From the sequence record OL631481.1: 64,000 nucleotides of DNA, one strand, 5' to 3'. Numbering within the stretch: the stretch's first letter is position 1; each line of letters opens with the position of its first letter. The position numbers and the translations under genes were made by a program. Source of the DNA: Escherichia phage ECML-183-2. Below, piece by piece: positions 2-50,874 of the stretch. The notes beneath the pieces are model-generated. The model saw only the letters and a list, made by a program, of their open reading frames with translations, searched no databases and was not told where the DNA came from.

Positions 2-100
2 TTAGAAGGTTTCTACCGGACTAATGGTGTTGAGGAACATGATATTTTAAACTTAAAAGGTTTTTGTGAAATAGTGGAGGATTTAAATGGCAGCAATTAA
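2..100 (+). CDS. 3' end of an unidentified upstream gene (partial at window edge)
   Basis: Frame open from window start to TAA at 98-100, overlapping nrdB start; too short to identify. Confidence 0.25.
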   Translation, partial: LEGFYRTNGVEEHDILNLKGFCEIVEDLNGSN

Positions 101-1175
101 TTTACATAACGAAGTTTACAAAACAGGAAAATATCCAGTATTTTTAGGGGAACAATTAGGGATTTTTGATTCTGTTAACGTAACTTATCCAGAAATGCAT
201 AAACTCTACAAACTTCAAAAAGCACAAGATTGGGATGAGAATGAAGTTAATCTGGATCAGACACGTAAAGATTTCGTAGCTTGTTCTAAAAACAACTATG
301 ATGTTATGATTAAAAACTTATCGTTCCAATGGGAAAATGATTCTCTTGCAAAATCAATCATCACTTTGTTCTCTCCATTCTTGAGTAACAATGAAGCCTG
401 TGCTATGATGATGAAGCAGAGTGAAATGGAAGTTCTCCATGCGTTAACGTATTCTGAAATAATCCGTCAATGTACTCCAGATCCAATTGAAGTCATCAAT
501 CAGATTATGATTAATGATAAAATTTTCAATCGTATGGGTATCATTGCTGATATCATGGGTCAGTTGGAAGAAGCTGGTCATAAGTATGCTCTAGGATTGA
601 TTGAAGCTAACGATGAACTTCGCTTGCTGATTCTTAAAGGGATGGTAGCCCTGATTGGATTAGAAGGTATTCAGTTTATATCTTCCTTCTCTGCTACTTT
701 TGCTATGGCAGAACAACAACTGTTTGTTGGGGCTTGTAAACTGATCCAGAAAATTATGCTAGATGAAATCTTGCATGTTAAGATGGACTATGCTGTAATT
801 GATGCATTGATGCATGACCCAATTTGGCGTAAAATTTACGAAGATAATATTGAAGAGTTGACTTTGATCCTCGACACTGTTGTTGAACAAGAGGAACAGT
901 GGTGTGACTACCTGTTTAGTGAAGGTCGTTTTATTGTAGGTCTTAACGCCGAATTGTCTAAACAGTGGGTTTATTTCAATGCTGCTCCTATTTATCGTCG
1001 ATTGAAAATGAAAGCCAAGTTTAAAGCACCTAAACATAGTCCTTTAGCTTGGATGGAAAAATGGTTGAATCCTGATTTGATTCAGTCAGCAGCCCAAGAG
1101 ATTCAGTTAACTAATTACAAATTGAATTCAGCTAACAAAGATCTCTCTGATGATGAGGAGCTTGACTTCGAATGA
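87..1175 (+). CDS. nrdB: ribonucleotide reductase class Ia small (beta) subunit
   Basis: 362 aa; diiron/tyrosyl-radical motifs align with E. coli NrdB (EVLHALTYSEIIRQ, DEILH, QEEQWCDYLF); GGAGG RBS. Confidence 0.9.
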   Translation: MAAINLHNEVYKTGKYPVFLGEQLGIFDSVNVTYPEMHKLYKLQKAQDWDENEVNLDQTRKDFVACSKNNYDVMIKNLSFQWENDSLAKSIITLFSPFLSNNEACAMMMKQSEMEVLHALTYSEIIRQCTPDPIEVINQIMINDKIFNRMGIIADIMGQLEEAGHKYALGLIEANDELRLLILKGMVALIGLEGIQFISSFSATFAMAEQQLFVGACKLIQKIMLDEILHVKMDYAVIDALMHDPIWRKIYEDNIEELTLILDTVVEQEEQWCDYLFSEGRFIVGLNAELSKQWVYFNAAPIYRRLKMKAKFKAPKHSPLAWMEKWLNPDLIQSAAQEIQLTNYKLNSANKDLSDDEELDFE

Positions 1176-1381
1176 TTTTGAAATGTGTTGGTATAATCGA
1201 CACATTCAAAGACGTTTTTGATAAAGGGGCTTCTTATGAAGCCTCTGAAATGAAGAATGGTTTTTGTGATGTATTCGGTAAACGCCTGAAGAAAAATGGC
1301 GATCCTTGGCTAGGAGTTATGTCTTGTGGTCATATTATTGTAAATGGTGTTGCCAAATTTGAAATAATTAAGGAGGAATAG
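1172..1381 (+). CDS. hypothetical protein (69 aa)
   Basis: ATGA overlap with nrdB stop; same-strand compact packing. Confidence 0.45.
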   Translation: MILKCVGIIDTFKDVFDKGASYEASEMKNGFCDVFGKRLKKNGDPWLGVMSCGHIIVNGVAKFEIIKEE

Positions 1382-1533
1382 TGGCTGAAAAACTTATTTT
1401 TTGTCCTGTGTGCGGTGGGACGGGACAGATGGAAGTGGAAATTATGGTAACATTTCCTTGCCTGAATTGTCATGGTGAGGGACGAGTAGTAGTCTTTGAA
1501 AAAGAAGGGTTGGAGGTAGAAGATGGAGAGTGA
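1381..1533 (+). CDS. small zinc-ribbon protein (50 aa, GTG start)
   Basis: Not in ORF track (<60 aa); CPVC..CLNC pairs; AGGAGG just upstream; coordinates hand-derived. Confidence 0.35.
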   Translation: MAEKLIFCPVCGGTGQMEVEIMVTFPCLNCHGEGRVVVFEKEGLEVEDGE

Positions 1534-1687
1534 AAAAGAGTATGTTCGCATTCCACGAGAATTAACAGATCACATTGCAGAAGCAATAGCTTTCGAAGCT
1601 AGATGTTGTGGAGGCATTGCTTACGATATTTATGAAGCAATTATTAAAGCTGCTCAAGAAGAGGAGGAGATGAAAAATGGGTATTGA
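1523..1687 (+). CDS. hypothetical small protein (54 aa)
   Basis: Not in ORF track; GGAGG RBS 6 nt upstream of ATG; fills gap before next gene. Confidence 0.3.
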   Translation: MESEKEYVRIPRELTDHIAEAIAFEARCCGGIAYDIYEAIIKAAQEEEEMKNGY

Positions 1688-2003
1688 TATCGAATGGCGT
1701 ATGTTACAGGGTGCACCTTTTAATAAGTGGGAAGAGGCTGTAGGAGAAGATCCTAGAATTGAAGAAGAATTTGATGGAGATTTTAACTGGTTCTTACAAG
1801 AAGGTCTTGACTTAAGTCGAATCTCTCCTTTCTACGATGCTGATGAGTCTTATTGCATATATGGTATTTATTTAGAAGGCGGAGAAGGAAGCGTAGCTGT
1901 AGATCTTGAGCAAGTAAATGAGAATGCAAAAGAAGCCTATGCAGAGCTACTTGAAAAATATAACATTAAAACGGAAACTATTATTTCTCAACATGTCTGG
2001 TAA
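1677..2003 (+). CDS. hypothetical protein (108 aa)
   Basis: ORF track; RBS GAGGAGGAG upstream; acidic protein. Confidence 0.5.
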   Translation: MGIDIEWRMLQGAPFNKWEEAVGEDPRIEEEFDGDFNWFLQEGLDLSRISPFYDADESYCIYGIYLEGGEGSVAVDLEQVNENAKEAYAELLEKYNIKTETIISQHVW

Positions 2004-2012
2004 GGAGAGAAA

Positions 2013-2579
2013 ATGAAAGTAGAAAAAACAAAAATTGAAGGTGCGGTAATTATCAAACCAGACGTTTATAAAGATGACCGTGGTTTCTTTTTAGAAACAT
2101 ATAATGAACAAAAATACGAAGATATCATTGGTAGACAAACTTTCGTTCAAGATAACATGTCTAAATCAAACTTCGGTGTTTTGCGAGGAATGCACTTTCA
2201 AACAAATAATCCGCAAGGTAAGCTTGTTCGTTGTGTAAGTGGTGAAGTATTGGATTTCGCTGTAGACTTACGTAAAGATAGTCCTACTTACGGTGCTTGG
2301 GACGGTGTTGTTCTTCGTGCACGACACCATACGCAGTTTTGGCTTCCACCTGGTTTGGCACATGGTTTTATAGTTTTGAGTATGGATGCTATCTTTGAAT
2401 ACAAATGCACAACTCCATACGACCCTTCTAGTGAAGAAAGTTTACGTTGGGATGATCCTGATATAGGGATCGATTGGGGCTTCGATATGATTTTTGATGA
2501 AGGTTTTAAACCTATCCTATCAACAAAAGATGCAATGGCTAAATCTTTTCAACAGTTACGTAGCGAGGGTGTATGCTAA
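2013..2579 (+). CDS. rmlC: dTDP-4-dehydrorhamnose 3,5-epimerase
   Basis: 188 aa; RmlC cupin signatures (DDRGFF.E, VLRGMHFQ, KLVRCV.GEV.DFAVDLRKDSPTYG, PPGLAHGF). Confidence 0.9.
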   Translation: MKVEKTKIEGAVIIKPDVYKDDRGFFLETYNEQKYEDIIGRQTFVQDNMSKSNFGVLRGMHFQTNNPQGKLVRCVSGEVLDFAVDLRKDSPTYGAWDGVVLRARHHTQFWLPPGLAHGFIVLSMDAIFEYKCTTPYDPSSEESLRWDDPDIGIDWGFDMIFDEGFKPILSTKDAMAKSFQQLRSEGVC

Positions 2580-3415
2580 CATATCTGGTATTGGGTGGTA
2601 ATGGACAACTGGGACAAGCTTTACGTAAAGTTGCCCCTGCAAATGTATCTTTAATTTATCCTAAAGAACGTGTAGATATTACAAATTTTGAAGCTGTGCG
2701 AAACGCTATTGTTGAAGATTATGTAGATGGTGTTATTAATTGCGCCGCTTATACGGCTGTAGATAAAGCCGAACAAGATTTTGCTACTGCTTTGGCTGTT
2801 AATGCTTATGGCCCTGCAAATATTGCGGCAGTGTGCAGCAAACTTAAAATTGATTTTGTGCATATTTCCACAGACTATATTTTTAATTATTCTCATCCTA
2901 TTTTTGAAGACACTGCACCTAACCCAATAAACAATTATGGGTATACGAAAGAACTTGGTGAAAAAATGGTGCGAGGAGTTAACCCAAATGCATATATTAT
3001 TCGAACAGCCTCGGTATATAGCGAATTTGGAAATAACTTTCTAAAAACCATGTTGTCTCGCTATAATGATGGACAACGTGATTTTATTATTGTTGCTGAT
3101 CAGTTCTCTTGTCCAACATATGCTCCAGATTTAGCAGAAGCTATTTTTGAAGTATTAAAAACAGGTTGGTCAAGGTCTGTTAAGACTTACCATTTTGCAG
3201 GAAGCCATCTTATTTCTTGGGCGGAGTTTGCGGAAAAGATCTTGACACAGATGCCAGAACCTGTTAAGATATCGGCGGTATCAGCTTCAACCTATAATGC
3301 TCCAGCAGCACGTCCGGTGAAGTCACAACTAATAACCAGTCACTATCTTACAAAATCAGATTTAAATAAAGGTATTGAACAGTCTTTAGCAGTATTACTT
3401 AATAAGGAGAGGTAA
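2573..3415 (+). CDS. rmlD: dTDP-4-dehydrorhamnose reductase
   Basis: 280 aa; N-terminal Rossmann GGNGQLG, STDYIF, catalytic YGYTK; overlaps rmlC stop. Confidence 0.9.
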   Translation: MLTYLVLGGNGQLGQALRKVAPANVSLIYPKERVDITNFEAVRNAIVEDYVDGVINCAAYTAVDKAEQDFATALAVNAYGPANIAAVCSKLKIDFVHISTDYIFNYSHPIFEDTAPNPINNYGYTKELGEKMVRGVNPNAYIIRTASVYSEFGNNFLKTMLSRYNDGQRDFIIVADQFSCPTYAPDLAEAIFEVLKTGWSRSVKTYHFAGSHLISWAEFAEKILTQMPEPVKISAVSASTYNAPAARPVKSQLITSHYLTKSDLNKGIEQSLAVLLNKER

Positions 3416-3837: not shown

Positions 3838-4338
3838 ATGGCTAAAGTAGTAGATGAGTTTGATATGCTACGAGTCGATGAAGGACTGAAGCTTACTGTT
3901 TATCAAGATCATCTTGGTTATTGGACAGTTGGCATAGGACACCTTCTGACTAAAATAAAAGATAAAGCAAAGGCTATTCAAATCTTAGATAATCTCCTTG
4001 GTCGTAAGACCAATGGAGTTATCACAGAAAAAGAAGCCCGTCAAATCTTTGCTGACGATGTTGCAAAAGTGAAGAGAGACATAAAAAACAGTGCTATCTT
4101 ATCACCAATCTATGATAAGGTGAGTGATACTCGTAAATTGGGAATAATCAACATGGTTTTCCAGTTGGGGTTAAAAGGTGCTGAAGGGTTTAAAAATAGC
4201 TTGACTTTAATCAGCAATGCATATTATACTCAAGCAGGTAAAAACATGCGTAAAAGCCGATGGTATAGCCAGACGCCAAACCGTGCTGAACGAGTAATTA
4301 AAGTTCTGACTTCTGGAACTTTAGATGCTTACAACTAA
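3838..4338 (+). CDS. e: T4-type lysozyme (endolysin, gene e homolog)
   Basis: 166 aa; colinear with T4 lysozyme (MLRVDEGLKLTVYQDHLGYWTVGIGHLLTK, KSRWYSQTPNRAERVI, GTLDAY); catalytic E/D/T conserved. Confidence 0.9.
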   Translation: MAKVVDEFDMLRVDEGLKLTVYQDHLGYWTVGIGHLLTKIKDKAKAIQILDNLLGRKTNGVITEKEARQIFADDVAKVKRDIKNSAILSPIYDKVSDTRKLGIINMVFQLGLKGAEGFKNSLTLISNAYYTQAGKNMRKSRWYSQTPNRAERVIKVLTSGTLDAYN

Positions 4339-4342
4339 TAAA

Positions 4343-4356
4343 GGGGCTTCGGCCCC
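4343..4356 (+). terminator. GC stem-loop GGGGC-TTCG-GCCCC between e and phoH (weak terminator or stabilising hairpin)
   Basis: Perfect 5-bp stem with TTCG loop; only short T tract after. Confidence 0.4.
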
Positions 4357-4375
4357 TTCTAAAAGGAGTGCTACT

Positions 4376-5134
4376 ATGGGAAATAAAACCGCAGCTAAAA
4401 CACAACGGCAGAAACTGGCTAATTCAGCAAAGATTGAAAGCCGTTATGCAGCAAAAGCGGTAGGTAATGACGATTACCGTTTAGATGAATTTATGCCTGA
4501 AGGGGACCAAAATAAGATTGTTCAAAGCATGATTTGGAATGATCTGACTGTTGTAAATGCTCCGGCAGGGACTGGTAAAACCTCTGTTGCTTTATGGAAA
4601 GCTTTGCAGATGCTTCGTTCAGGAGACTTCCGTAAACTACTTTTTATCAAGAACCCTACTGAAGTCGGAGATGACCAGATTGGTTTCTTGTCTGGGGATA
4701 AAACAGATAAACTAGCAGCACACTATGAATCTACAAAACGTATTTTCCAGCAATTCATGACAGCCAACAAATTGGAAAACGATATTGGATCAGGTAAGAT
4801 CGAATTGAATATTCCTAACTATTTGTTGGGGGCTACCCTGGATAATACAATCGTCATTATTGACGAAGCACAACTTATGTCAACAGAAACACTTAAACTT
4901 CTTATTGAACGTGCAGGTATTAATACGCATGTTATTGTATTAGGCGATGTTCGCCAGACATATGCAATTAAAAAACGTAGCAATGGTCTGCATCAAATTT
5001 TGGAACTTTTATATCCAGAAAATGAAGAAGGTGTTCGTGAGCCAATTGTAGATTTTATTGGATACGTTGAACTGACAACGGACGATAATAAACGTGGACG
5101 TTTGTCTAAACTGATTACTGAAGTGTTTATTTAA
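4376..5134 (+). CDS. phoH: PhoH-like ATPase
   Basis: Start moved to internal ATG with AAGGAG RBS; Walker A APAGTGKTS, Walker B VIIDEAQ. Confidence 0.85.
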   Translation: MGNKTAAKTQRQKLANSAKIESRYAAKAVGNDDYRLDEFMPEGDQNKIVQSMIWNDLTVVNAPAGTGKTSVALWKALQMLRSGDFRKLLFIKNPTEVGDDQIGFLSGDKTDKLAAHYESTKRIFQQFMTANKLENDIGSGKIELNIPNYLLGATLDNTIVIIDEAQLMSTETLKLLIERAGINTHVIVLGDVRQTYAIKKRSNGLHQILELLYPENEEGVREPIVDFIGYVELTTDDNKRGRLSKLITEVFI

Positions 5135-5169
5135 TAATGTGGCAGGGAAGCCATTTATAAGGAGGATTG

Positions 5170-5670
5170 ATGGGTGTAGCAACAATAGCTATCGGAAGAA
5201 GCGGTATAGATGAGTGCTATCAAACGGGACTCGTAAAACCTAACGAATTTCGTCAAATTTGTGTAAACCATATTGAAAAAGAGATTGCTCTTACTTTAGA
5301 GAATATGACCCTCCGAGATAAACTGGAAATGTTTAAATGTTGGTGTCTAGGAGAAGATTGGCTTTTAAACCATTTTCAAGAACTTTCTGATAGTAAAGAA
5401 AGCTTGTTTGATTGTATAATAGGAATAGCTGGCTCCGATCCTAGCCTTCTGCACATAACAGAAGAAGAGGCGAAGTTACTGTTCTTAAGTAATTTGTTTA
5501 ATAAGAAAGCACTGCTTGTTCGTGATTGCAGTGATCTTCTTAATAACCCGCTCGCAACGTCTGATCAAATTTTTGTTGACAAAGAGACACTACGTGCGAT
5601 AGAATACATCTGCAAATATGTGAATGGCGGGAAAGCGGTTCTTAAAACATTAACAGAGGAGGAAGAATAG
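5170..5670 (+). CDS. hypothetical protein (166 aa)
   Basis: ORF track (start at ATG after TTG); AAGGAGG RBS. Confidence 0.5.
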   Translation: MGVATIAIGRSGIDECYQTGLVKPNEFRQICVNHIEKEIALTLENMTLRDKLEMFKCWCLGEDWLLNHFQELSDSKESLFDCIIGIAGSDPSLLHITEEEAKLLFLSNLFNKKALLVRDCSDLLNNPLATSDQIFVDKETLRAIEYICKYVNGGKAVLKTLTEEEE

Positions 5671-6362
5671 TGACGACAATTATTGCAACCAAAAATAAGA
5701 TTTTGAGTGACGGTAAGGTAACTTTTGGTGGACGTGTAGATTCTATTAATTTCAAAAAGGTCCGAAAAATTGGAGATTACCTTGTAGGTGGTGCTGGTCG
5801 TCTGACCTCCGTGCTTTCTTTCTTTCAATGGTTTGAACAAAATCTACAGTGCGAAGCAGCACGTGATGCTGTCCCTGGTTTGATGATTCACTCTGATCCA
5901 GATAAAGAAGATGAAGAGTTTATTGCACTTGTTGTTCATCCAGACGGACGTATTTTCCTGCACGAAGGTAACAACCCAACACGTGCATATCCGATTGATG
6001 AAGAATATTATGCAGTAGGAAGTGGGTCAGACTTTGCTTTAGCTGCTCTTGATGCAGGGGCAACACCAGAACAGGCTATGGAAGTAGCTAAAAAGCGAGA
6101 TGCTTTTTCTGGTGGTGAAACATTTATTGAAGAACAAGACGAGATTATTGAATTAACAGATGATGATTTAGAAAACTTCTCCAAAGAAGAATTGATCAAT
6201 CTTTTGAAATTCGGTAATCCCTACGGTGAAGAAGAACCTCGTAACGTGGCAGGTAACGAGGCGGATACTGAAGAAAAATCTGTTGCAGAAAACAACTTGA
6301 CTTCTAAATCTGAAAATATTAATCTCGTAAATGTGGCGGATTTCGAAGGAACCGCTATTTAA
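5670..6362 (+). CDS. HslV/proteasome-beta-like Ntn peptidase with acidic C-terminal extension
   Basis: GTG start then TTI (N-terminal Thr after fMet), GGAGRLTS and GSGSDFALAA motifs resembling HslV. Confidence 0.55.
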   Translation: MTTIIATKNKILSDGKVTFGGRVDSINFKKVRKIGDYLVGGAGRLTSVLSFFQWFEQNLQCEAARDAVPGLMIHSDPDKEDEEFIALVVHPDGRIFLHEGNNPTRAYPIDEEYYAVGSGSDFALAALDAGATPEQAMEVAKKRDAFSGGETFIEEQDEIIELTDDDLENFSKEELINLLKFGNPYGEEEPRNVAGNEADTEEKSVAENNLTSKSENINLVNVADFEGTAI

Positions 6363-6367
6363 CAAAC

Positions 6368-6389
6368 TGCCCCTTCGGGGGCATTTCTT
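6368..6389 (+). terminator. rho-independent terminator
   Basis: TGCCCC-TTCG-GGGGCA hairpin followed by TTTCTT. Confidence 0.55.
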
Positions 6390-6407
6390 AAACATAGGAG
6401 ATTAATA

Positions 6408-6842
6408 ATGTTACAAGTTCCTGCTAAGTTTGTTGAAGGCGCTATCCACTCTTACCGTCAAACATGTAAGAGGGCAAGAAACTGTTTAGATGGTCTGGTG
6501 GCAAAAACCTATACTGTTGAAAAGAAGAAACGTTGGTTTGGCAAAGATGTTTACGAAGTTAATATTTTTGGTGAACATAAACTAAACCACGATACTCCTG
6601 AAAACATGTTAGAAATATTTCTAAGAGATGACAAAATATCTCCTATGGATTACCAACTTTTAAAATTTTATGATTCTTCTTTGGCTATTGATAAGTTTGT
6701 TGAAGATATTCTGTCTAGAAAAACAGATAAAAACACTTATCCTCTAGAGGCTGATCAAATAGGATTATTAAACGAGATTTCATCCTTTAAAGAGTTGGAT
6801 AATATTACAAAAGAGGAGATTTTAGATGGCATTAGATTATGA
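6408..6842 (+). CDS. hypothetical protein (144 aa)
   Basis: ORF track; RBS AGGAG. Confidence 0.5.
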   Translation: MLQVPAKFVEGAIHSYRQTCKRARNCLDGLVAKTYTVEKKKRWFGKDVYEVNIFGEHKLNHDTPENMLEIFLRDDKISPMDYQLLKFYDSSLAIDKFVEDILSRKTDKNTYPLEADQIGLLNEISSFKELDNITKEEILDGIRL

Positions 6843-7335
6843 TCGCCCAACGAGCGATTATTATCCGACACCGCAAAAAGCAATCAATAGTTTGTTTAGT
6901 GTTATAGATTTCAAAAATCTAAAGGAAGAAGGTTGGGTTTTTGCAGAACCTTGCAGAGGTGAAGCTGAAGCGATTTATCGCCATTTTCCTGAAGGTTCAG
7001 AATATTGCGAACTTGAAGAAGGTAAAGATTATTTTAGTCACGAATGGGAAAATCGTCCCGACATTATAATCACAAATCCTCCATTTAAGTTAGCAATGGA
7101 GTTCTTGGAAAAGAGCTTAAAAGAGGCGGATGTTTGTATTTATCTTCTTCGGTTGGGCTTCTTGGAGTCAAAGAAACGACGAGAGTTCCATCAAAAGAAT
7201 CCACCAACAAACCTTATAGTCCTTTCAGAACGGCCTTCGTTTGTTGCAGGTGGAACAGATAAGACAGCATACGCTTGGTATGTATACGACCCAAAGAATC
7301 GTTTGGGCCTCTCTCAACCATTTTATTTTGTTTAA
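6826..7335 (+). CDS. putative DNA N6-adenine methyltransferase (NPPF motif)
   Basis: 169 aa; DYYPTP and IIITNPPF catalytic-motif-like segments; family not verified. Confidence 0.45.
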   Translation: MALDYDRPTSDYYPTPQKAINSLFSVIDFKNLKEEGWVFAEPCRGEAEAIYRHFPEGSEYCELEEGKDYFSHEWENRPDIIITNPPFKLAMEFLEKSLKEADVCIYLLRLGFLESKKRREFHQKNPPTNLIVLSERPSFVAGGTDKTAYAWYVYDPKNRLGLSQPFYFV

Positions 7336-7347
7336 GGAGTGTGAACT

Positions 7348-7584
7348 ATGGGTAAACTAATTATGACAGTGGCTATTGATTTTGATGAAGTAGATGAAAG
7401 CCTCAACCTTTCACTTTCTACTGACGTAGATGGCGAAATGGATAATATTGAAGCAGCTACTGCTCTTTTCTTCAAAAAAGCCATTGAAGTTTATGCCGAA
7501 CATGCTGCAAATCAGGCAGTAGATTACGGTGGTATCGTGCGAGCTTTAGTTCACTCTACCGAGGGCAATGACTGGGAAGATTAA
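7348..7584 (+). CDS. hypothetical protein (78 aa)
   Basis: ORF track; RBS AAGGAG. Confidence 0.45.
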   Translation: MGKLIMTVAIDFDEVDESLNLSLSTDVDGEMDNIEAATALFFKKAIEVYAEHAANQAVDYGGIVRALVHSTEGNDWED

Positions 7585-7787
7585 TGGCTTACAATTATTA
7601 CTGCATTTATGCACATGAGAAGAAAAAAGGTGACACTGGGACTAACGTTTATGCGGAGTCCGAATCTCATGCAAAAGAGATTGGTGCTATCCTTTTATCA
7701 CGCTGGACTGGAAATAATTACAGTGCAGAAGATATGTTTGCAGAAGTGGATTCTAGTATCCAAGAAGGCAACATAACAACTACGTGA
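7584..7787 (+). CDS. hypothetical protein (67 aa)
   Basis: ORF track; ATG overlaps upstream stop. Confidence 0.4.
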   Translation: MAYNYYCIYAHEKKKGDTGTNVYAESESHAKEIGAILLSRWTGNNYSAEDMFAEVDSSIQEGNITTT

Positions 7788-7795
7788 TATACTTA

Positions 7796-7821
7796 TACTC
7801 CCTTTTCGGAGGGAGTATTTT
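7796..7821 (+). terminator. rho-independent terminator
   Basis: TACTCCC-loop-GGGAGTA hairpin followed by TTTT. Confidence 0.55.
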
Positions 7822-7832
7822 AAGGAGGGATT

Positions 7833-8027
7833 ATGCAGAGCGGAGAAGAACTTTTAGAGAAACAATTCTCAACGCGTCAACAAGCTTTAAGTTATATGGT
7901 TTTTCTAAGCAATCTTGATGTGAATGAGATACTTTTACGGCGCGAAGGTAATTTCTGGAGCGTTAAATATCATGCAACAAGGTCTGTAATCTACCTGGAA
8001 GAGGCGGAATTCTCTTTGGTAGAATGA
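7833..8027 (+). CDS. hypothetical protein (64 aa)
   Basis: ORF track; RBS AAGGAGGG. Confidence 0.45.
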   Translation: MQSGEELLEKQFSTRQQALSYMVFLSNLDVNEILLRREGNFWSVKYHATRSVIYLEEAEFSLVE

Positions 8028-8624: not shown

Positions 8625-8954
8625 ATGGAAATTACTACAGAACAAGCCCTTATCGACGAGGGTCGTAAAATCTTAGAAAAGTATTTAGGGGAGATTCATA
8701 AAACCCCTGGCTATTTGGGTTGGAGAATTGTTGAAGCTGTAGATTTCCTTCCTCGTAACAGTAAAAACGTCGAAATGCGATCTCTTTTCTTATTAGTAAA
8801 GGTGGATGGGGATACGCCTTTTAAAGATGCCGCAGAACATATTGAAAAAGTTGAAGAGAAAGCTTATGCAGAATTTGCCGATCTTGTTTTAGAACAAGAG
8901 ATTGAAGGAAAGGTGAATATTTTTATTTTCTTAGATTTTGAGGAGGATAAGTGA
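8625..8954 (+). CDS. hypothetical protein (109 aa)
   Basis: ORF track; RBS GGAGGAAGG. Confidence 0.5.
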   Translation: MEITTEQALIDEGRKILEKYLGEIHKTPGYLGWRIVEAVDFLPRNSKNVEMRSLFLLVKVDGDTPFKDAAEHIEKVEEKAYAEFADLVLEQEIEGKVNIFIFLDFEEDK

Positions 8955-9694
8955 TCATACACAGAGAAATTACTGTTAAAAGCGATCAAGATCTTTTTAT
9001 AATTGGAGATCTACACGGTTGTTATAATTTGTATGAAAAAGGAAAGGCAAAGTTAGGTATCCGAGATACAGATGTGGTTGTATCTCTAGGAGATCTTACT
9101 GACCGTGGAAAGCAAAACTTTCGTTGTGTTTTAGAATTTACTCGTAAACACAATCGCTACGCTATTCGTGGCAATCATGAAGACATGATGATTAAAGGTA
9201 TGCTGGAAGGAGATCGTAGCTACTACGAGTGTTGGTATCAAAATGGAGGATATACGGTCTTTGAAGAATGTGGTGAAGAAGGAGCTACAGCCTTAGCAAT
9301 GATGACAGAAGATTTACCTGTTGTTCTCATTGTTAACTACAGAGGCATGAAACTTGCGTTTATTCATGGTGGGTATCCATCTTCTTTGGAATATCTCCCT
9401 GTAACAGATATTCCAGAATACATTTCGAAGATGACAAAAACACAGGAAAACCGTTTTGCTGAAGCACTTATGTGGGACAGAGATATGGTAGACTGTGCTA
9501 AAGAGGGAATGAAACTTCCTGTTGTGATGGGTGTGGATTATGTGTTTCATGGACACTCTTATGTAAAAACACCTATTATCAATGCGAATCGTGTTTATAT
9601 GGATACTGGATCTGTGTTCAATAATAACTTAACATTTGCTTATTTCGATATGGACGGTGGTCTTCAATTTTATTCAACTCTTGAGGAGGATTAA
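8951..9694 (+). CDS. Ser/Thr protein phosphatase (lambda-PPase-like metallophosphoesterase)
   Basis: GDLHGC, GDLTDRG, GNHE metal-binding motifs; GTG start with GAGGAGG RBS. Confidence 0.8.
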   Translation: MIIHREITVKSDQDLFIIGDLHGCYNLYEKGKAKLGIRDTDVVVSLGDLTDRGKQNFRCVLEFTRKHNRYAIRGNHEDMMIKGMLEGDRSYYECWYQNGGYTVFEECGEEGATALAMMTEDLPVVLIVNYRGMKLAFIHGGYPSSLEYLPVTDIPEYISKMTKTQENRFAEALMWDRDMVDCAKEGMKLPVVMGVDYVFHGHSYVKTPIINANRVYMDTGSVFNNNLTFAYFDMDGGLQFYSTLEED

Positions 9695-10002
9695 TGTATA
9701 AGATTACAATTATTCAAAGTGTAGGTAATATCCGTAAAGAAGTTATCTTAGAAACAGAAGATGTTAATCTTGTTCGTGAGATTGTTTTTAAGGAAGATAA
9801 CCTGCAAACTGTAGAATCGGATGCACCGAATCTTATGGTGGATCAAGAATATTCTGAACTTCGTCGTATTTTTGAAGAGATTCAGAAGAAAGAAACACAA
9901 CCTACCATAAAACCTTTTGGTCCTTATGATCCGAGCAATCCTAGCAGTCCTTGGATCATGAGAAATACGGAACCCTATACACCTTTTGAAATTACTTGTT
10001 GA
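9694..10002 (+). CDS. hypothetical protein (102 aa)
   Basis: ORF track; RBS GAGGAGG. Confidence 0.5.
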   Translation: MYKITIIQSVGNIRKEVILETEDVNLVREIVFKEDNLQTVESDAPNLMVDQEYSELRRIFEEIQKKETQPTIKPFGPYDPSNPSSPWIMRNTEPYTPFEITC

Positions 10003-10009
10003 GGTGATT

Positions 10010-10591
10010 ATGGCAGAACTGTTCTATACGGGAGTTGGAAGTAGAGACATATCTGAAGAAGAGTGGGCTTTGATGGTAGGCATAGGGAAATGGCTTTCAA
10101 ACCTTGGGTTTAAATTAAGGTCTGGGAAGGCAGAGGGTAGTGATTCTGCTTTTGAAACAGGTGTCCAAGAGTCTGAAAATCCTACTAACAAGGAGATTTA
10201 TGTTCCTTGGGAAAATTTCAAAGGTAATCAGATTCCAGGTGATGTTATTGTTCTTGCAAAACCAGATACAATGAACTATGCTATCTCTGTGCAATGGATC
10301 AAAGATGTTCACCCAGCTTATGAAAAGCTTAAGCAGGGTGCTAGAAAATTGCACCAACGTAATGTGCATCAAGTGTTAGGCAGAGATTTGGAGAATCCTG
10401 CTCCATCATGTTTCTTGTTGGCTTGTGCTAATACTGATAAACATGGAGATGCAAAAGGTGGAACAGCTACGGCTTGGAAGATAGCTAAAGCCAATAATGT
10501 TCCTTGTTTAAACATTCGTGGGAAAACAAAACAAGAGATTTACGATTTTCTACGACCTTTGGTAATGAGGGCAATAACAAGTGATTCCTAG
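10010..10591 (+). CDS. DprA/Smf-like Rossmann-fold (SLOG-type) protein
   Basis: GVGSRD ... LRSGKAEGSDSAFETG resembles DprA core; start moved to ATG after GAGG. Confidence 0.4.
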   Translation: MAELFYTGVGSRDISEEEWALMVGIGKWLSNLGFKLRSGKAEGSDSAFETGVQESENPTNKEIYVPWENFKGNQIPGDVIVLAKPDTMNYAISVQWIKDVHPAYEKLKQGARKLHQRNVHQVLGRDLENPAPSCFLLACANTDKHGDAKGGTATAWKIAKANNVPCLNIRGKTKQEIYDFLRPLVMRAITSDS

Positions 10592-16308: not shown

Positions 16309-17124
16309 ATGCCGCGTAGAGTCATATTCATAACTGGCGCAGGACTATCTGTGGATAGCGGTATCCCAGCTTTTAGAACAGATACTTCTTCAGGGGAGGC
16401 GTTATGGTCTTCTTATAATCTTTCTGAAGTCTGTGACATTTTCAACTTCCGTGACGGTTATCAGCAAGAACAAGGTATTCTGGATGCTATGGGCGGTTTA
16501 GATGCGGAAGGATATAACCTCTACCGTAAAACTCACGACTTTTACAATAAACGTCGCGCGGAATTAGAGAAAGTTGACCCGAATCCGGCACATCTTCAGA
16601 TTGGGGAATGGTTCAAAAAACATGGTGCAGAAAAGATTATTAACATCACTACTAACGTTGATGACCTCCTTGAACGAGCAGGAGTAGATAGGGAAGAAGT
16701 GCTACATGTGCATGGTTTTCTTCCTGAAATTACTTTTCAAAGAAAAGCTGGACAACCTACAATTGTAAAAGATGTTGGTTATCAAGCCATAGATGTAGAT
16801 GACTACCATTATGTAAAACCTAATGTAATCTTCTTTGGGGAAGCTGCTCCACTTTACACAGATATGTATCATATTTTTGATACACTGACGGCTCAAGATA
16901 TGGTTATCGTTGTAGGCTGCTCTAACCAAGTAATCAACTTCAACTGGGAACTCTTCCCTGCCCTGAATATTGGGGTTAAGATGGTTGTAGTTAACCCAGG
17001 TTTGAATTTTGTAGAACAAACTCTCTACGAAGAACGTGGAGTGCTTGTCTACCGAGAGAAAGCAGGAACAGTCTTCAGTGATGAAGGCTTTATCAAAATG
17101 GTTGAAGACCATTTAAACAAATAA
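16309..17124 (+). CDS. Sir2-family (sirtuin-like) NAD+-dependent protein, no zinc-ribbon
   Basis: GAGLSVDSGIPAFR, TTNVDDLLERAG, HG, VIFFGE, VVGCS motifs; the CxxC..CxxC Zn module is absent. Confidence 0.8.
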   Translation: MPRRVIFITGAGLSVDSGIPAFRTDTSSGEALWSSYNLSEVCDIFNFRDGYQQEQGILDAMGGLDAEGYNLYRKTHDFYNKRRAELEKVDPNPAHLQIGEWFKKHGAEKIINITTNVDDLLERAGVDREEVLHVHGFLPEITFQRKAGQPTIVKDVGYQAIDVDDYHYVKPNVIFFGEAAPLYTDMYHIFDTLTAQDMVIVVGCSNQVINFNWELFPALNIGVKMVVVNPGLNFVEQTLYEERGVLVYREKAGTVFSDEGFIKMVEDHLNK

Positions 17125-47384: not shown

Positions 47385-47927
47385 TCACAAATATCGTCTT
47401 TGCGGTATTTTGTCTGGGAAAAGTATTTCGATCAGTTTGTTATGATATTTACCTAAAAGATTTTGCCCTTTCCAGTTGACCGGATTTAGCACCCCTGGTT
47501 CATACATTCCCATTCCAATACCGTAAACCTTATCGTAAGGACTTGCTTCAACAAACGTTTTGTATTGGTAAAGGTGTAAGTCTGCATACAAATCTGGATT
47601 CTGTACATATTTCAAGCATAAACCTCGCATAACAATACGCTCACGGTTCTCTTCCCATACGTTGTTATCAAAATCCGACACTGCCCTACCCATACGTTTG
47701 TAATAAGCTTGAATCTTCTCATCTTTCCGTATCAAACTATGAGTCAGAATAGCCTGTGCAGTGTTGTGATCATTAAAAAGCAAAGCTTTACGCCACATTA
47801 TGTATTGTTCGACACAATTAAATGTCTGATTGTAACCTGGTTCGGTTTCTGTAAAGGGTGCAATATACCAATTACTAAAAACATCTTTATGTGAAAAGAA
47901 GAATACATAATCATCAGTTATTCGCAT
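47385..47927 (-). CDS. NADAR-domain (YbiA-like) protein
   Basis: 180 aa; FSNWY, EQYIMWRKA, WEENRERIVMRGL..KY.QNP.L, VEASPYD, GQNLLGK colinear with E. coli YbiA. Confidence 0.75.
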   Translation of the reverse strand: MRITDDYVFFFSHKDVFSNWYIAPFTETEPGYNQTFNCVEQYIMWRKALLFNDHNTAQAILTHSLIRKDEKIQAYYKRMGRAVSDFDNNVWEENRERIVMRGLCLKYVQNPDLYADLHLYQYKTFVEASPYDKVYGIGMGMYEPGVLNPVNWKGQNLLGKYHNKLIEILFPDKIPQRRYL

Positions 47928-48138: not shown

Positions 48139-48481
48139 AAACTGCGTCTGCGTCGATGAGTTTGTGTTTGTTGTTCCGCATGTAGTCTAAGATAAGTAGA
48201 CGTTTATTGTATCTGGAGAGATTATGACCCTCTTTTCCGCCATAGTCAAAATATTTTGCAAGATCTTTACACTCAAACAAAATCAGTTCGGGAGTTTCTT
48301 CACACTGGTCTGTCTGGTACACTTGACGAATGATCATGTATACATCGTCGTCTTCCGCTAAATGCTCTACTGGTCCACATCCAGCAGGAACAAATTCATA
48401 GTCCCATCTGATCAGATGTTTCTCTACTGCTTCAAAGAAGTCCATTCTTTCGTTGCGCATAATTTGAACGTCAACTAACAT
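48116..48481 (-). CDS. hypothetical protein (121 aa)
   Basis: ORF track. Confidence 0.45.
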   Translation of the reverse strand: MLVDVQIMRNERMDFFEAVEKHLIRWDYEFVPAGCGPVEHLAEDDDVYMIIRQVYQTDQCEETPELILFECKDLAKYFDYGGKEGHNLSRYNKRLLILDYMRNNKHKLIDADAVYGYWWMD

Positions 48482-49659
48482 GTTTCCTCCTGTAATGTTC
48501 CACCATAAAGTTTATAAATGTTTTGTATTGATGCCATGCAAGATAACTCCGCTGTCTCTGTGTAGCCATCTGGCATAGCATATTTGCTCACTGCTTCCGT
48601 GTGAAGGACACGCTTACAACGCTTTTCTGCATCTTTGCATTGCTTCACAGTAGGGAAGTGCCACACTTGGCCCTGTTTCATAGTAAACACATTACGACTA
48701 TTTTGTTCTTTGATACGGCGATTACTATTATTAGCAATACCAAACTTCAGTGCACAGATAATATCTTGCTCATCGTAAATATAATTAATGTAGGCTTGTT
48801 GTTGATTTTTGTTAGCACACTGCGGACAACCTTGTCCTATGTTTAAAAGGTTGTTTGCAGTTCCTTTTTGTTCCCCATGACTCTTACATACGTATTTAAA
48901 CTTACCTATAGAAGATGGTTTGGTAATCCATCCTATCCAAACATACCCTTTCTTTTCTATTTTCTTTCTTACTTTATACGTAATCTGTTCCGCTGTATAC
49001 CTATAAGATGCAGAGCAACGGCAGGGTAAGTGTCCATATTTAAGATTGCTACGCGTCATATAAAACTTACCATCACATAGTCCAGCTTTAACATATTCAT
49101 CATGAGAACAAACAGGACACTGAACCATCCATACTGGATCACACCCTTTACGTTCCCCCGTGTTGGTGAAAATAGTGCCTTCCTTAAACTTCCCTGTAGA
49201 AAAGAAATCTGCAATATGTTGATCGTCGGGTATTGTTTGTGACCTCCTTGTGTTCTCATACCTACATATAAGACAACCACTGCCATGTTTAAAACTATCA
49301 AAACTACATGTATTCCATTCATGACCATACCTACAACGTAGCATCATTTTCGTACGCGCACCTTTAAACGGTTCTACGATACCTATGATGGTAATCCCCT
49401 TAGCTTCCGCTATTGGTTTACATTCAGTAAGGTATGTTTTTAAATCTTTAATTTGACCTGCACACATAGGACAACCACTACCACGTTTAAAACTGTTAAT
49501 ACTTGTAGTATCCCATTTATAACCACAATGACACAACAAATCAAGTTTTGTATTAACCCCTTTCCATTCTCCCGTCCATCCTAAGATTTGGATTTGCTTA
49601 CTCTCTGCTATTGGTTGACACTCTTCTTTATATTGTTCCCATGATTTTGGTGCTGCCAT
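48475..49659 (-). CDS. T5orf172 (GIY-YIG-like) domain protein with four N-terminal CxxC zinc-ribbon repeats
   Basis: Repeated W..F..GSGCP.C units; C-terminal YINYIYDEQD..KFGIANN..RR ... GYTETAEL. Confidence 0.5.
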   Translation of the reverse strand: MAAPKSWEQYKEECQPIAESKQIQILGWTGEWKGVNTKLDLLCHCGYKWDTTSINSFKRGSGCPMCAGQIKDLKTYLTECKPIAEAKGITIIGIVEPFKGARTKMMLRCRYGHEWNTCSFDSFKHGSGCLICRYENTRRSQTIPDDQHIADFFSTGKFKEGTIFTNTGERKGCDPVWMVQCPVCSHDEYVKAGLCDGKFYMTRSNLKYGHLPCRCSASYRYTAEQITYKVRKKIEKKGYVWIGWITKPSSIGKFKYVCKSHGEQKGTANNLLNIGQGCPQCANKNQQQAYINYIYDEQDIICALKFGIANNSNRRIKEQNSRNVFTMKQGQVWHFPTVKQCKDAEKRCKRVLHTEAVSKYAMPDGYTETAELSCMASIQNIYKLYGGTLQEETC

Positions 49660-49734: not shown

Positions 49735-50874
49735 TTAGAACACGCTACCTAATGTGGTGGAACGTTGTGTTACAGGCTCCAGCACCACTCGCAGAGTGTT
49801 TCCTGGTGTAGTGCTCATCACCAGGATCTTACCACCTTCAATCAGATCACAAGTTAGACCATCAGCAGTTGCACATAGATCAATATGTGGATCACCATCT
49901 TCATCCAGGATAACATAACTGTTGGTTTCCATTGCTTCAACTTCATCATCTTTCAAGCTTTGCAGATAGATGTTCAGGGAACAAGCACCCGACAAAAACT
50001 TAGTAGGGGTGAAGTCGTGCCAGTTATTGATCCAATTCACCTTCAGAGTTTTGCCATTAGCTACGATAGAAGCCACATTCCATTTAGCATCATTGCCTAA
50101 AGAAATACCCATCATTTCAAGGCATTCTTTAAAAGTCATTTTTGGATAGAAATTCAATTCTTCTACAATGCCTTGAATAACATCGAAAGACAACTCTGTG
50201 CTAACATCCCATAAACGTTGGAAGTTATCTACGTGTTTTTTATTTACCAAGTTCTTATCCAAGTAATCTAACATAGTTTCACTAGACAGTTTATCGTAAT
50301 TGAAACTGTAATAGATACGACTAGGACGGTTTACAAAATATTCCGAGATATAGCCGCTATTTTTAGTGAGGATGTAAAGTTTATTTCCACTTCCTGTTCC
50401 ATCCAACAAGGTCAACAGTGCTTCCTGATCTTCTTTCTTAGCGTACACTTTATCAAATTCGTCAAATAAAACAACAGCACGATCTGTAATTTTACTCATA
50501 AATTCTAAGAATCCAGCATCTGTGTAAGGCTGTGTCACCAAAATGGTTGGAATACCTAAACCTTCTGTGGACATTAGGGACATGCTAATTAGTTTAGCCA
50601 ACATCGTCTTACCACTGCCTTTTGTCCCTGTCAGTAACACCCCAGTATTTTTACCTTCTTTACTACGACGAGCAAATGTTTTAATAACATGTGCGGCGCG
50701 ATCTTTAGTTTCCCCATAAAGAGTGTTCGGAAGAGAGAAACTTTCACCACGCACTAAAGAGTAGTTACCGTGCGGATCGCAGTTGACAACCCAAACTCCA
50801 GCAGGAAGTTTATTAGCTTCAACGCCATATTCCTTATTTACAACAGCTACATCTCCAAAAATAGTGTATTTCAT
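49735..50874 (-). CDS. AAA+ ATPase
   Basis: Walker A GTKGSGKT, Walker B VVLFDEFD; ~170-aa C-terminal domain of unknown function. Confidence 0.7.
   Translation of the reverse strand: MKYTIFGDVAVVNKEYGVEANKLPAGVWVVNCDPHGNYSLVRGESFSLPNTLYGETKDRAAHVIKTFARRSKEGKNTGVLLTGTKGSGKTMLAKLISMSLMSTEGLGIPTILVTQPYTDAGFLEFMSKITDRAVVLFDEFDKVYAKKEDQEALLTLLDGTGSGNKLYILTKNSGYISEYFVNRPSRIYYSFNYDKLSSETMLDYLDKNLVNKKHVDNFQRLWDVSTELSFDVIQGIVEELNFYPKMTFKECLEMMGISLGNDAKWNVASIVANGKTLKVNWINNWHDFTPTKFLSGACSLNIYLQSLKDDEVEAMETNSYVILDEDGDPHIDLCATADGLTCDLIEGGKILVMSTTPGNTLRVVLEPVTQRSTTLGSVF

Follow-up and report, generated by a model that had tools for sequence, protein, structure and literature searches.

The stretch analysed here, referred to as the window, comprises 64,000 nucleotides of Escherichia phage ECML-183-2 (sequence record OL631481.1). 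It is DNA of a phAPEC8-like Escherichia coli phage of the genus Phapecoctavirus (Stephanstirmvirinae), and bases 4300–8000 share 99.8% identity with the Phapecoctavirus phages vB_EcoM_Schickermooser, phAPEC8, and ESCO13. On the plus strand, at 5670..6362 including the stop codon, the window carries the coding sequence of a 230-residue N-terminal nucleophile (Ntn) threonine peptidase of the proteasome family, an assignment drawn from the open reading frame (ORF) list, Pfam, PHROG, RefSeq, AlphaFold2 (AF2), and Foldseek. The RefSeq counterpart is HOV53_gp078 (gp078 of Schickermooser), which is identical to phAPEC8_0094 and is labelled 'peptidase HslV family' (phrog_1040). The identification as an HslV-like peptidase is already public, with the gene annotated in dozens of genomes, and this kind of protein has previously been described by bioinformatics, in a survey of the PPH and RPC families (Fuchs, Alva and Lupas 2021, PMC8665760). 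The literature found on the function of phage HslV and PPH proteins consists of genome notes and this survey, with no functional work on this gene. Phage-encoded proteasome homologues are common across phages, none of them characterised by experiment. In the phage collection searched, 233 records match the peptidase, and its core matched 2,642 cluster representatives at E<=0.001, a count that includes cellular HslV.

Translation starts at a GTG at 5670, with the Shine-Dalgarno sequence GAGGAGG (5656..5662, plus strand, read from the sequence) located 7 nt ahead of it. The sequence GGAGGAAG is kept in relatives, whose start at the same position is ATG. The product begins M-T-T-I-I, as the first-pass annotation of this DNA had stated in naming an fMet-Thr-Thr start, and E. 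coli HslV begins (M)TTIV. E. coli methionine aminopeptidase cleaves off a methionine that precedes threonine. The codon of Thr2, which would become the catalytic Thr1 after removal of this methionine, lies at 5673..5675.

Conservation of the active site was assessed in an alignment of 42 homologues and in cluster representatives from an exhaustive search of 1.84 billion representatives. The latter yielded the 150 nearest at 50% identity, and the counts given here refer to the 133 of them that start with MT or LT. All seven proteasome catalytic residues are present, namely Thr1, Asp17, Lys33, Gly47, Ser129, Asp166, and Ser169. Six of the seven are held in 117 to 133 of the 133 representatives, and the position of Ser169 is Ser or Thr in 125. 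The 42-sequence alignment shows no variation at T2, T3, I4, D14, K30, G43, G117, S118, or G119, so that Thr1 and the catalytic lysine and serine, whose conservation the first-pass annotation had singled out for checking, are retained together with the aspartate. Among the representatives, all 133 have the threonine of Thr2. Asp14 (5709..5711; D in 131) is aligned to Asp17 of E. coli HslV and of human β5, and Lys30 (5757..5759; K in 133) corresponds to Lys33 of the proteasome and HslV in alignments to the same two proteins. The oxyanion-hole Gly47 is represented by Gly43 (5796..5798; G in 133). The GSG that had been noted from the letters is found at residues 117–119 (6018..6026) and matches the motif of HslV Ser124 and proteasome Ser129; both glycines occur in all 133 sequences, and the serine is Ser in 117 and Thr in 14. 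The second triad of Asp166 and Ser169 falls within D144-A-F-S147-G-G (6099..6116), with D in 122 sequences and S in 74 or T in 51 at the serine position. All of these codons are on the plus strand. The roles of Asp166, Ser129, and Ser169 and the second triad of Asp166 and Ser169 in the proteasome have been described (Huber et al., PMC4792962). In a BLASTP alignment, RDAFSGG of the peptidase pairs with RDAYSGG of human β5. Compared with phiWec179, the core shows a proportion of nonsynonymous differences (pN) of 0.05 and of synonymous differences (pS) of 0.80, which indicates strong purifying selection. Read from sequence, the gene product would be an active N-terminal-threonine peptidase of a phage branch of the proteasome superfamily; this forms part of the best explanation set out below, which as a whole is considered moderately probable.

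Profile searches and structure prediction agree with this placement. The peptidase scores 25.6 bits against the Pfam family Proteasome (PF00227; gathering score 22.4), which is a small margin, and the narrow pass is backed by the match to phrog_1040 (1.6e-63). Its best solved relative is the HslV of T. maritima (4.9e-9). An AF2 model built with an alignment has a mean predicted local distance difference test (pLDDT) of 85, with the core blocks mostly above 90. In addition to the core strands, helix H1 is predicted at residues 45–67, a coil at 68–83, H3 at 120–128, H4 at 133–143, and a last strand at 151–155. Foldseek against the PDB returned a probability of 1.0 to BPH (the Betaproteobacteria proteasome homolog; 1.5e-10), to HslV (about 3e-10), and to 20S β subunits, with a target-normalised TM (template modelling) score of about 0.65. 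The assignment as an Ntn threonine peptidase of the proteasome/HslV superfamily with a predicted αββα fold is thereby supported.

The first-pass annotation had called the protein an HslV-like Ntn peptidase. Profile search, AF2, and Foldseek uphold this for the superfamily and the fold, but the peptidase is not an HslV orthologue, because it lies far below the equivalog cut-offs, is modelled without helix H2, has an acidic pore segment, and has PPH-like proteins as its nearest relatives. Against the NCBIfam HslV equivalogs NF003964 and TIGR03692 it reaches 32.2 and 31.4 bits, more than 100 bits short of both cut-offs (137 and 157.75), while the E. coli HslV control reaches 303.8 and 288.2. The BLASTP score to the 142-residue protein gp060 of Caulobacter phage CcrPW (64 bits) exceeds that to E. 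coli HslV (41 bits), and BLASTP detected no match between the CcrPW protein and E. coli HslV. In place of H2, residues 68–83 (VPGLMIHSDPDKEDEE; 5871..5918, plus strand) are predicted by AF2 to form a coil (pLDDT 79–93) when read against the alignment with E. coli HslV. The segment ends in KEDEE, which is aligned to the HslV pore segment RMLRK, and its acidity is conserved across the family. With HslV (ClpQ) the peptidase shares the fold, the chemistry of Thr1, Asp17, Lys33, and Ser124, the MTT N-terminus, and 27% identity to the E. coli protein. It differs in the missing HslU gene and H2, in an acidic instead of a basic pore segment, in the added C-terminal extension, and in having RD-x-x-SGG of the proteasome-β type where E. 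coli HslV has GDICIYTN. The label 'ATP-dependent protease subunit HslV' at this locus is wrong and needs correction.

Loss of H2 is the distinguishing hallmark of the phage PPH and RPC families, and RPC is related to PPH and carries a C-terminal extension (PMC8665760). The features of the peptidase, set against these family descriptions, fit a PPH-type core with an RPC-like extension, in a phage-specific branch distinct from true HslV. The common ground comprises Thr1, Asp17, Lys33, and Gly47 and the absence of a propeptide and of H2, probably in a compact group-I core, and PPH is known from tailed phages that infect Proteobacteria. By sequence, the peptidase is closest to phage proteins of 135–160 residues, and its extension lacks a match to known domains (no Pfam match here), as in RPC. 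The 150 nearest representatives fall into two classes, namely minimal proteins of 135–160 residues and proteins of 180–350 residues that consist of a core of about 150 residues and an extension. By length, 71 have fewer than 160 residues and 67 at least 180, leaving 12 in the bin of 160–179 residues that corresponds to HslV (about 175 residues). Differences remain in both directions: the peptidase has 230 residues with a 75-residue extension, compared with about 140 residues for PPH, and the survey lists RPC in Proteobacteria only and none in phages. Compared with the CcrPW protein, the core of about 155 residues has an H1-to-S5 connection that is 13 residues longer.

BPH, the top Foldseek match (PDB 5ovs/5ovt), descends from HslV but stands alone, no unfoldase being apparent as its partner. 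Its inner surface and pore loop are highly acidic, and the pore segment of the peptidase is likewise acidic. However, identity is about 21%, and BPH, a cellular protein that assembles into tetradecamers, keeps H2, has a longer pore loop, and lacks an acidic tail at the C-terminus. With the 20S β subunits the peptidase shares both catalytic triads, including the Asp166/Ser169 motif, but it is much smaller, lacks a propeptide and an α-subunit partner, and has 23% identity to β5. In the model the core ends after S10, and the helices at 164–181 match the H5 region of β5 weakly and may represent an H5-like element.

The extension of about 70 residues that had been described as acidic comprises residues 156–230, about 75 in all, with 20 D/E, 5 K/R, and a net charge of −15. 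Its proximal part contains a two-helix element at residues 164–181 (LTDDDLENFSKEELINLL; 6159..6212, plus strand), for which AF2 predicts short helices at 164–169 and 172–181 with a pLDDT of about 90. The proximal motif (about residues 160–181) reads LT(K/R)E-x5-(M/L)(S/T)KE(E/Q)(L/I)(L/I)-x2-(L/I)(F/L), and of 62 relatives with an extension most carry a discernible form of the two-helix motif, even at 30–40% identity in the core. A pN of 0.09 and a pS of about 0.98 against phiWec179 show purifying selection on the element, which may act as an H5-like clamp or docking element, as judged from the sequence. The distal tail (residues 182–230; 6213..6359, plus strand) is acidic and predicted to be disordered, with a pLDDT of 76 at residues 181–190 and 45–54 at 191–230. 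Residues 196–230 have 7% identity among 60 Stephanstirmvirinae homologues, in most of which the net charge of the tail is −11 to −19, and the pN/pS of the tail is about 0.9. Selection thus acts on charge and not on sequence, which suggests a flexible acidic arm facing outwards. Extensions of 35–200 residues in the wider family are nearly all acidic (−10 to −36), and in other clades unrelated domains without a Pfam match take the place of the acidic tail. The possibility that the C-terminus of the peptidase imitates the HslU tail (EDLSRFIL) in cis was rejected, as C-termini vary even among close homologues.

As the first-pass annotation had maintained, HslU is absent from the window: tblastn with E. 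coli HslU returned nothing meaningful at E<=10, and E. coli HslV as query finds the gene. The complete genome of phage OZ035743, which is 99% related, gave no meaningful match to E. coli HslU in tblastn at E<=10 either. HslU-like genes do occur in Erwinia and Salmonella jumbo phages, Prevotella phages, and others, but these groups barely overlap with the carriers of the peptidase family, which are Escherichia, Vibrio, Caulobacter, Aeromonas, Klebsiella, and Rhizobium phages.

The suggestion that the phage recruits host HslU has to be weighed. HslV-like rings of the peptidase would capture host HslU as unfoldase and feeder, and the ATP-dependent protease of the host would be redirected to targets useful to the phage. 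This is encouraged by the clear homology to HslV, the presence of a β-hairpin of normal length at residues 16–28, and the lack of a phage-encoded unfoldase in a phage whose proteobacterial hosts have HslU. HslV is a dodecamer built from two hexameric rings, and HslU together with ATP activates it. In HslV, the C-terminal tails of HslU bind in a groove (PMC7468587), and the pocket between the subunits is formed by Phe54 and Phe57 of H1, Ala79 and Lys80 of H2, and Gln114 (PMC6429459). According to our mapping, the hydrophobic H1 positions of this pocket are retained in the peptidase, with L49 and F52 standing for Phe54 and Phe57. The model lacks H2, however, which supplies the rest of the pocket's helical lining in HslV, and Gln114 is not conserved, being aligned to Pro108. 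Lys28 of HslV, which we take to be a further tail-contact residue although the literature search did not confirm this, corresponds to Ser25, at a site that varies. In its pore segment the peptidase has acidic residues where HslV has basic ones, and it fails the HslV equivalog models. Moreover, the wider PPH family also occurs in Actinobacteria, which are without HslV according to the same table of the survey (PMC8665760) and lack HslVU. Recruitment of host HslU is made less likely by the loss of H2, the acidic pore, the Actinobacterial PPH proteins, and the scant overlap between the phage groups; the proposal is not supported and is regarded as unlikely. The further suggestion that the protease serves to process proteins of the phage or of the host is a guess.

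The only AAA+ ATPase had been placed 44 kb away, and the sole match to PF00004 among the ORFs tested is indeed at 49738..50874 on the minus strand. This gene was considered as a dedicated unfoldase and rejected: it belongs to phrog_2376, with weak similarity to clamp loaders and classic AAA proteins. Members of phrog_2376 are frequent in phages of Enterococcus, Bacillus, Staphylococcus, and Lactococcus, none of which appear in the tally of peptidase carriers. The protein has 379 residues and weak PDB similarity to Rix7 and AFG2 of the classic clade, and its family is common in Herelleviridae-type phages. The gene is adjoined by that of a CapR-domain HNH-like endonuclease (48478–49659, minus strand).

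The explanation that accounts best for the locus, and that we hold to be moderately probable, is an HslU-independent accessory threonine peptidase with a PPH-type core lacking H2 and an RPC-like extension. The protein would be translated from GTG as Met-Thr-Thr, and the methionine aminopeptidase of the host would expose Thr1. By homology with HslV and BPH, it may form a homo-oligomeric ring that encloses the active sites. It would need no unfoldase from the phage and most likely no HslU from the host, and its substrates would be peptides or unfolded proteins arriving at an acidic pore, probably those that are basic. The two-helix element conserved behind the core would serve as a structural or docking piece, while the disordered acidic tails may project outwards and recruit partners or substrates, or control access. 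The peptidase would be an accessory function; its gene is located among nucleotide-metabolism and host-interaction genes outside the virion module. A virus with a working unfoldase-free proteasome-like protease would represent a new kind of tool for host takeover or counter-defence, and binding partners of the acidic tails, if found, would provide a minimal model for the evolution and regulation of proteasomes.

In phage VEcB, residues 1–115 of PhoH are fused in frame to residues 63 to the end of the peptidase (window 4325–5134 and 5670–6362). The fusion points to a natural deletion of about 1.4 kb in which the C-terminal half of PhoH, the intervening ORF of phrog_14834, and the N-terminus of the peptidase with Thr1, Asp, and Lys were lost. 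If real, it implies that the peptidase gene is dispensable for plaque formation.

Several points count against an HslU-independent accessory peptidase. The AF2 prediction is of a monomer only. With the hydrophobic residues L49 and F52 kept in H1, the pocket for the HslU tail may be partly preserved. HslU is present in every known host of the subfamily, and its distribution leaves room for dependence on the host. The preference for basic substrates is deduced from charge only, and the PhoH::peptidase fusion of VEcB could be an assembly artefact. Literature searches turned up neither biochemistry nor genetics on members of the peptidase family.

In a bolder version, the extended subfamily would be a self-sufficient viral proteasome that works without ATP. 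Early in infection, basic proteins of the host would be caught by its acidic pore and its disordered, acidic, nucleic-acid-like tails and then degraded, and the two-helix element (LT+E..MSKEELL..LF) would act as an in-cis activator or clamp, as HslU tails do for HslV. Candidate targets would be nucleoid proteins, RNA- or DNA-binding defence proteins, and ribosomal proteins. In this full form the proposal is speculative and is given rather little weight.

A non-degradative role has still less to recommend it and is judged improbable. The protein would then be a specific processing enzyme, a transpeptidase or ligase comparable to connectase, or an amidohydrolase acting on a non-protein substrate. 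The superfamily does include a ligase (connectase) and many homologues without known activity, some of them apparently incompatible with ring assembly, and the variable C-terminal modules suggest specific partners. On the other hand, the active site is the full one of the proteasome with both triads, the model has no insertion between S3 and S4 of the connectase type, and the closest solved folds are the self-compartmentalising BPH and HslV. It is also very improbable that catalysis is irrelevant and that the protein serves as a decoy or inhibitor, its rings or acidic tails titrating a factor of the host, for which HslU, another protease, or a DNA-binding protein would be examples. Phages are known to inhibit host proteases, as T4 PinA does with Lon, and the strong acidity of the tail is retained as composition. 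Nevertheless, a pure decoy would have no need of catalytic residues that are invariant or nearly so across the family, and the minimal relatives of 135–160 residues have no tail. A virion (prohead) maturation protease is scarcely credible, as nothing specific favours it beyond the peptidase being a phage-encoded protease, whereas its gene lies among nucleotide-metabolism and host-interaction genes far from the structural genes, is flanked by a terminator-like hairpin of its own, and is apparently deleted in an isolated phage (VEcB).

This hairpin, TGCCCC-TTCG-GGGGCA followed by TTTCTT (6368..6390, plus strand, read from the sequence), lies 6 nt past the stop codon of the peptidase gene. It is identical in phiWec179, and PD06 has a different GC hairpin at the equivalent place. 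A sigma-70-like promoter match, TTGACA-18-TAGAAT (11/12), is found in the sequence at 5576..5605 on the plus strand within the upstream ORF. Its conservation is limited to Phapecoctavirus, and it is tentative, since promoter-like sites are in total no more numerous than expected by chance. With the promoter match and the hairpin, the peptidase gene may also be transcribed as a short unit of its own.

The upstream ORF (5170..5670, plus strand) encodes 166 residues and belongs to phrog_14834. Its TAG stop codon overlaps the GTG start of the peptidase gene (TAGTG); the overlap is ATGA in phiWec179 and PD06 and is lost in KP13-16. The ORF is restricted to Stephanstirmvirinae, where it always adjoins the peptidase gene, and it contains the strongly conserved motifs GLVKPNEFRQ, LVRDCSD, and VDKETLRAIEYL. 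No Pfam or PDB relatives were found for it, and a single-sequence AF2 model is all-helical with low confidence (pLDDT 44). The product could be a partner or regulator of the peptidase. It was also considered as a divergent inactive paralogue of the peptidase, because Aeromonas phage 2L372D has two adjacent proteasome-family genes, but this was rejected after a null BLASTP result and an hhalign probability of 0.2%. A search for a second proteasome-family gene in the phage found none.

The two adjacent genes of 2L372D encode gp210 and gp211 (L004 4432–5885). The former has 183 residues, starts with MTCII, and has GCG in place of GSG; the latter has 294 residues and starts with MTTIA. They could form a two-subunit viral proteasome-like complex.

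In the phage studied here, the peptidase gene lies inside a plus-strand block that includes NrdAB, ThyX, the dTDP-rhamnose pathway, glutaredoxin, lysozyme, PhoH, methyltransferases, a Ser/Thr phosphatase, DprA, and Sir2. The order lysozyme–PhoH–(one to five small genes)–peptidase is seen again in phages of Klebsiella, Aeromonas, and Vibrio as well as on metagenomic contigs, and the neighbourhood NrdAB–Grx–lysozyme–PhoH–x–peptidase is also found in distant relatives. PhoH may be a partner of the peptidase, as the order PhoH–x–peptidase is widespread, but this order may equally reflect mere inherited synteny.

Four records labelled Campylobacter or Acinetobacter are near-exact matches to Stephanstirmvirinae of E. 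coli, namely MG065650 (B15), MG065645 (A145), MG065639 (A150), and OP562383 (ABPW7). B15 has 99.7% DNA identity at the locus and ABPW7 99.1% identity in the peptidase protein, while the protein identities of A145 and A150 equal those of E. coli Justusliebigvirus records. The host labels of these four records look doubtful.

PADLOC defence-system models gave no match. The window also contains, at 87–3415 on the plus strand, a dTDP-L-rhamnose set of RmlB, RmlA, RmlC, and RmlD homologues in this lytic coliphage, named after the annotation of the near-identical Schickermooser genome and followed by glutaredoxin. Further genes encode a Ser/Thr metallophosphatase (8951–9694, plus strand) and a DprA-like protein (9986–10591, plus strand), as well as a Sir2-family protein (16309–17124, plus strand) and a NADAR-domain protein (47388–47927, minus strand) in the same genome arm. 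These four genes are candidates for host manipulation or counter-defence.

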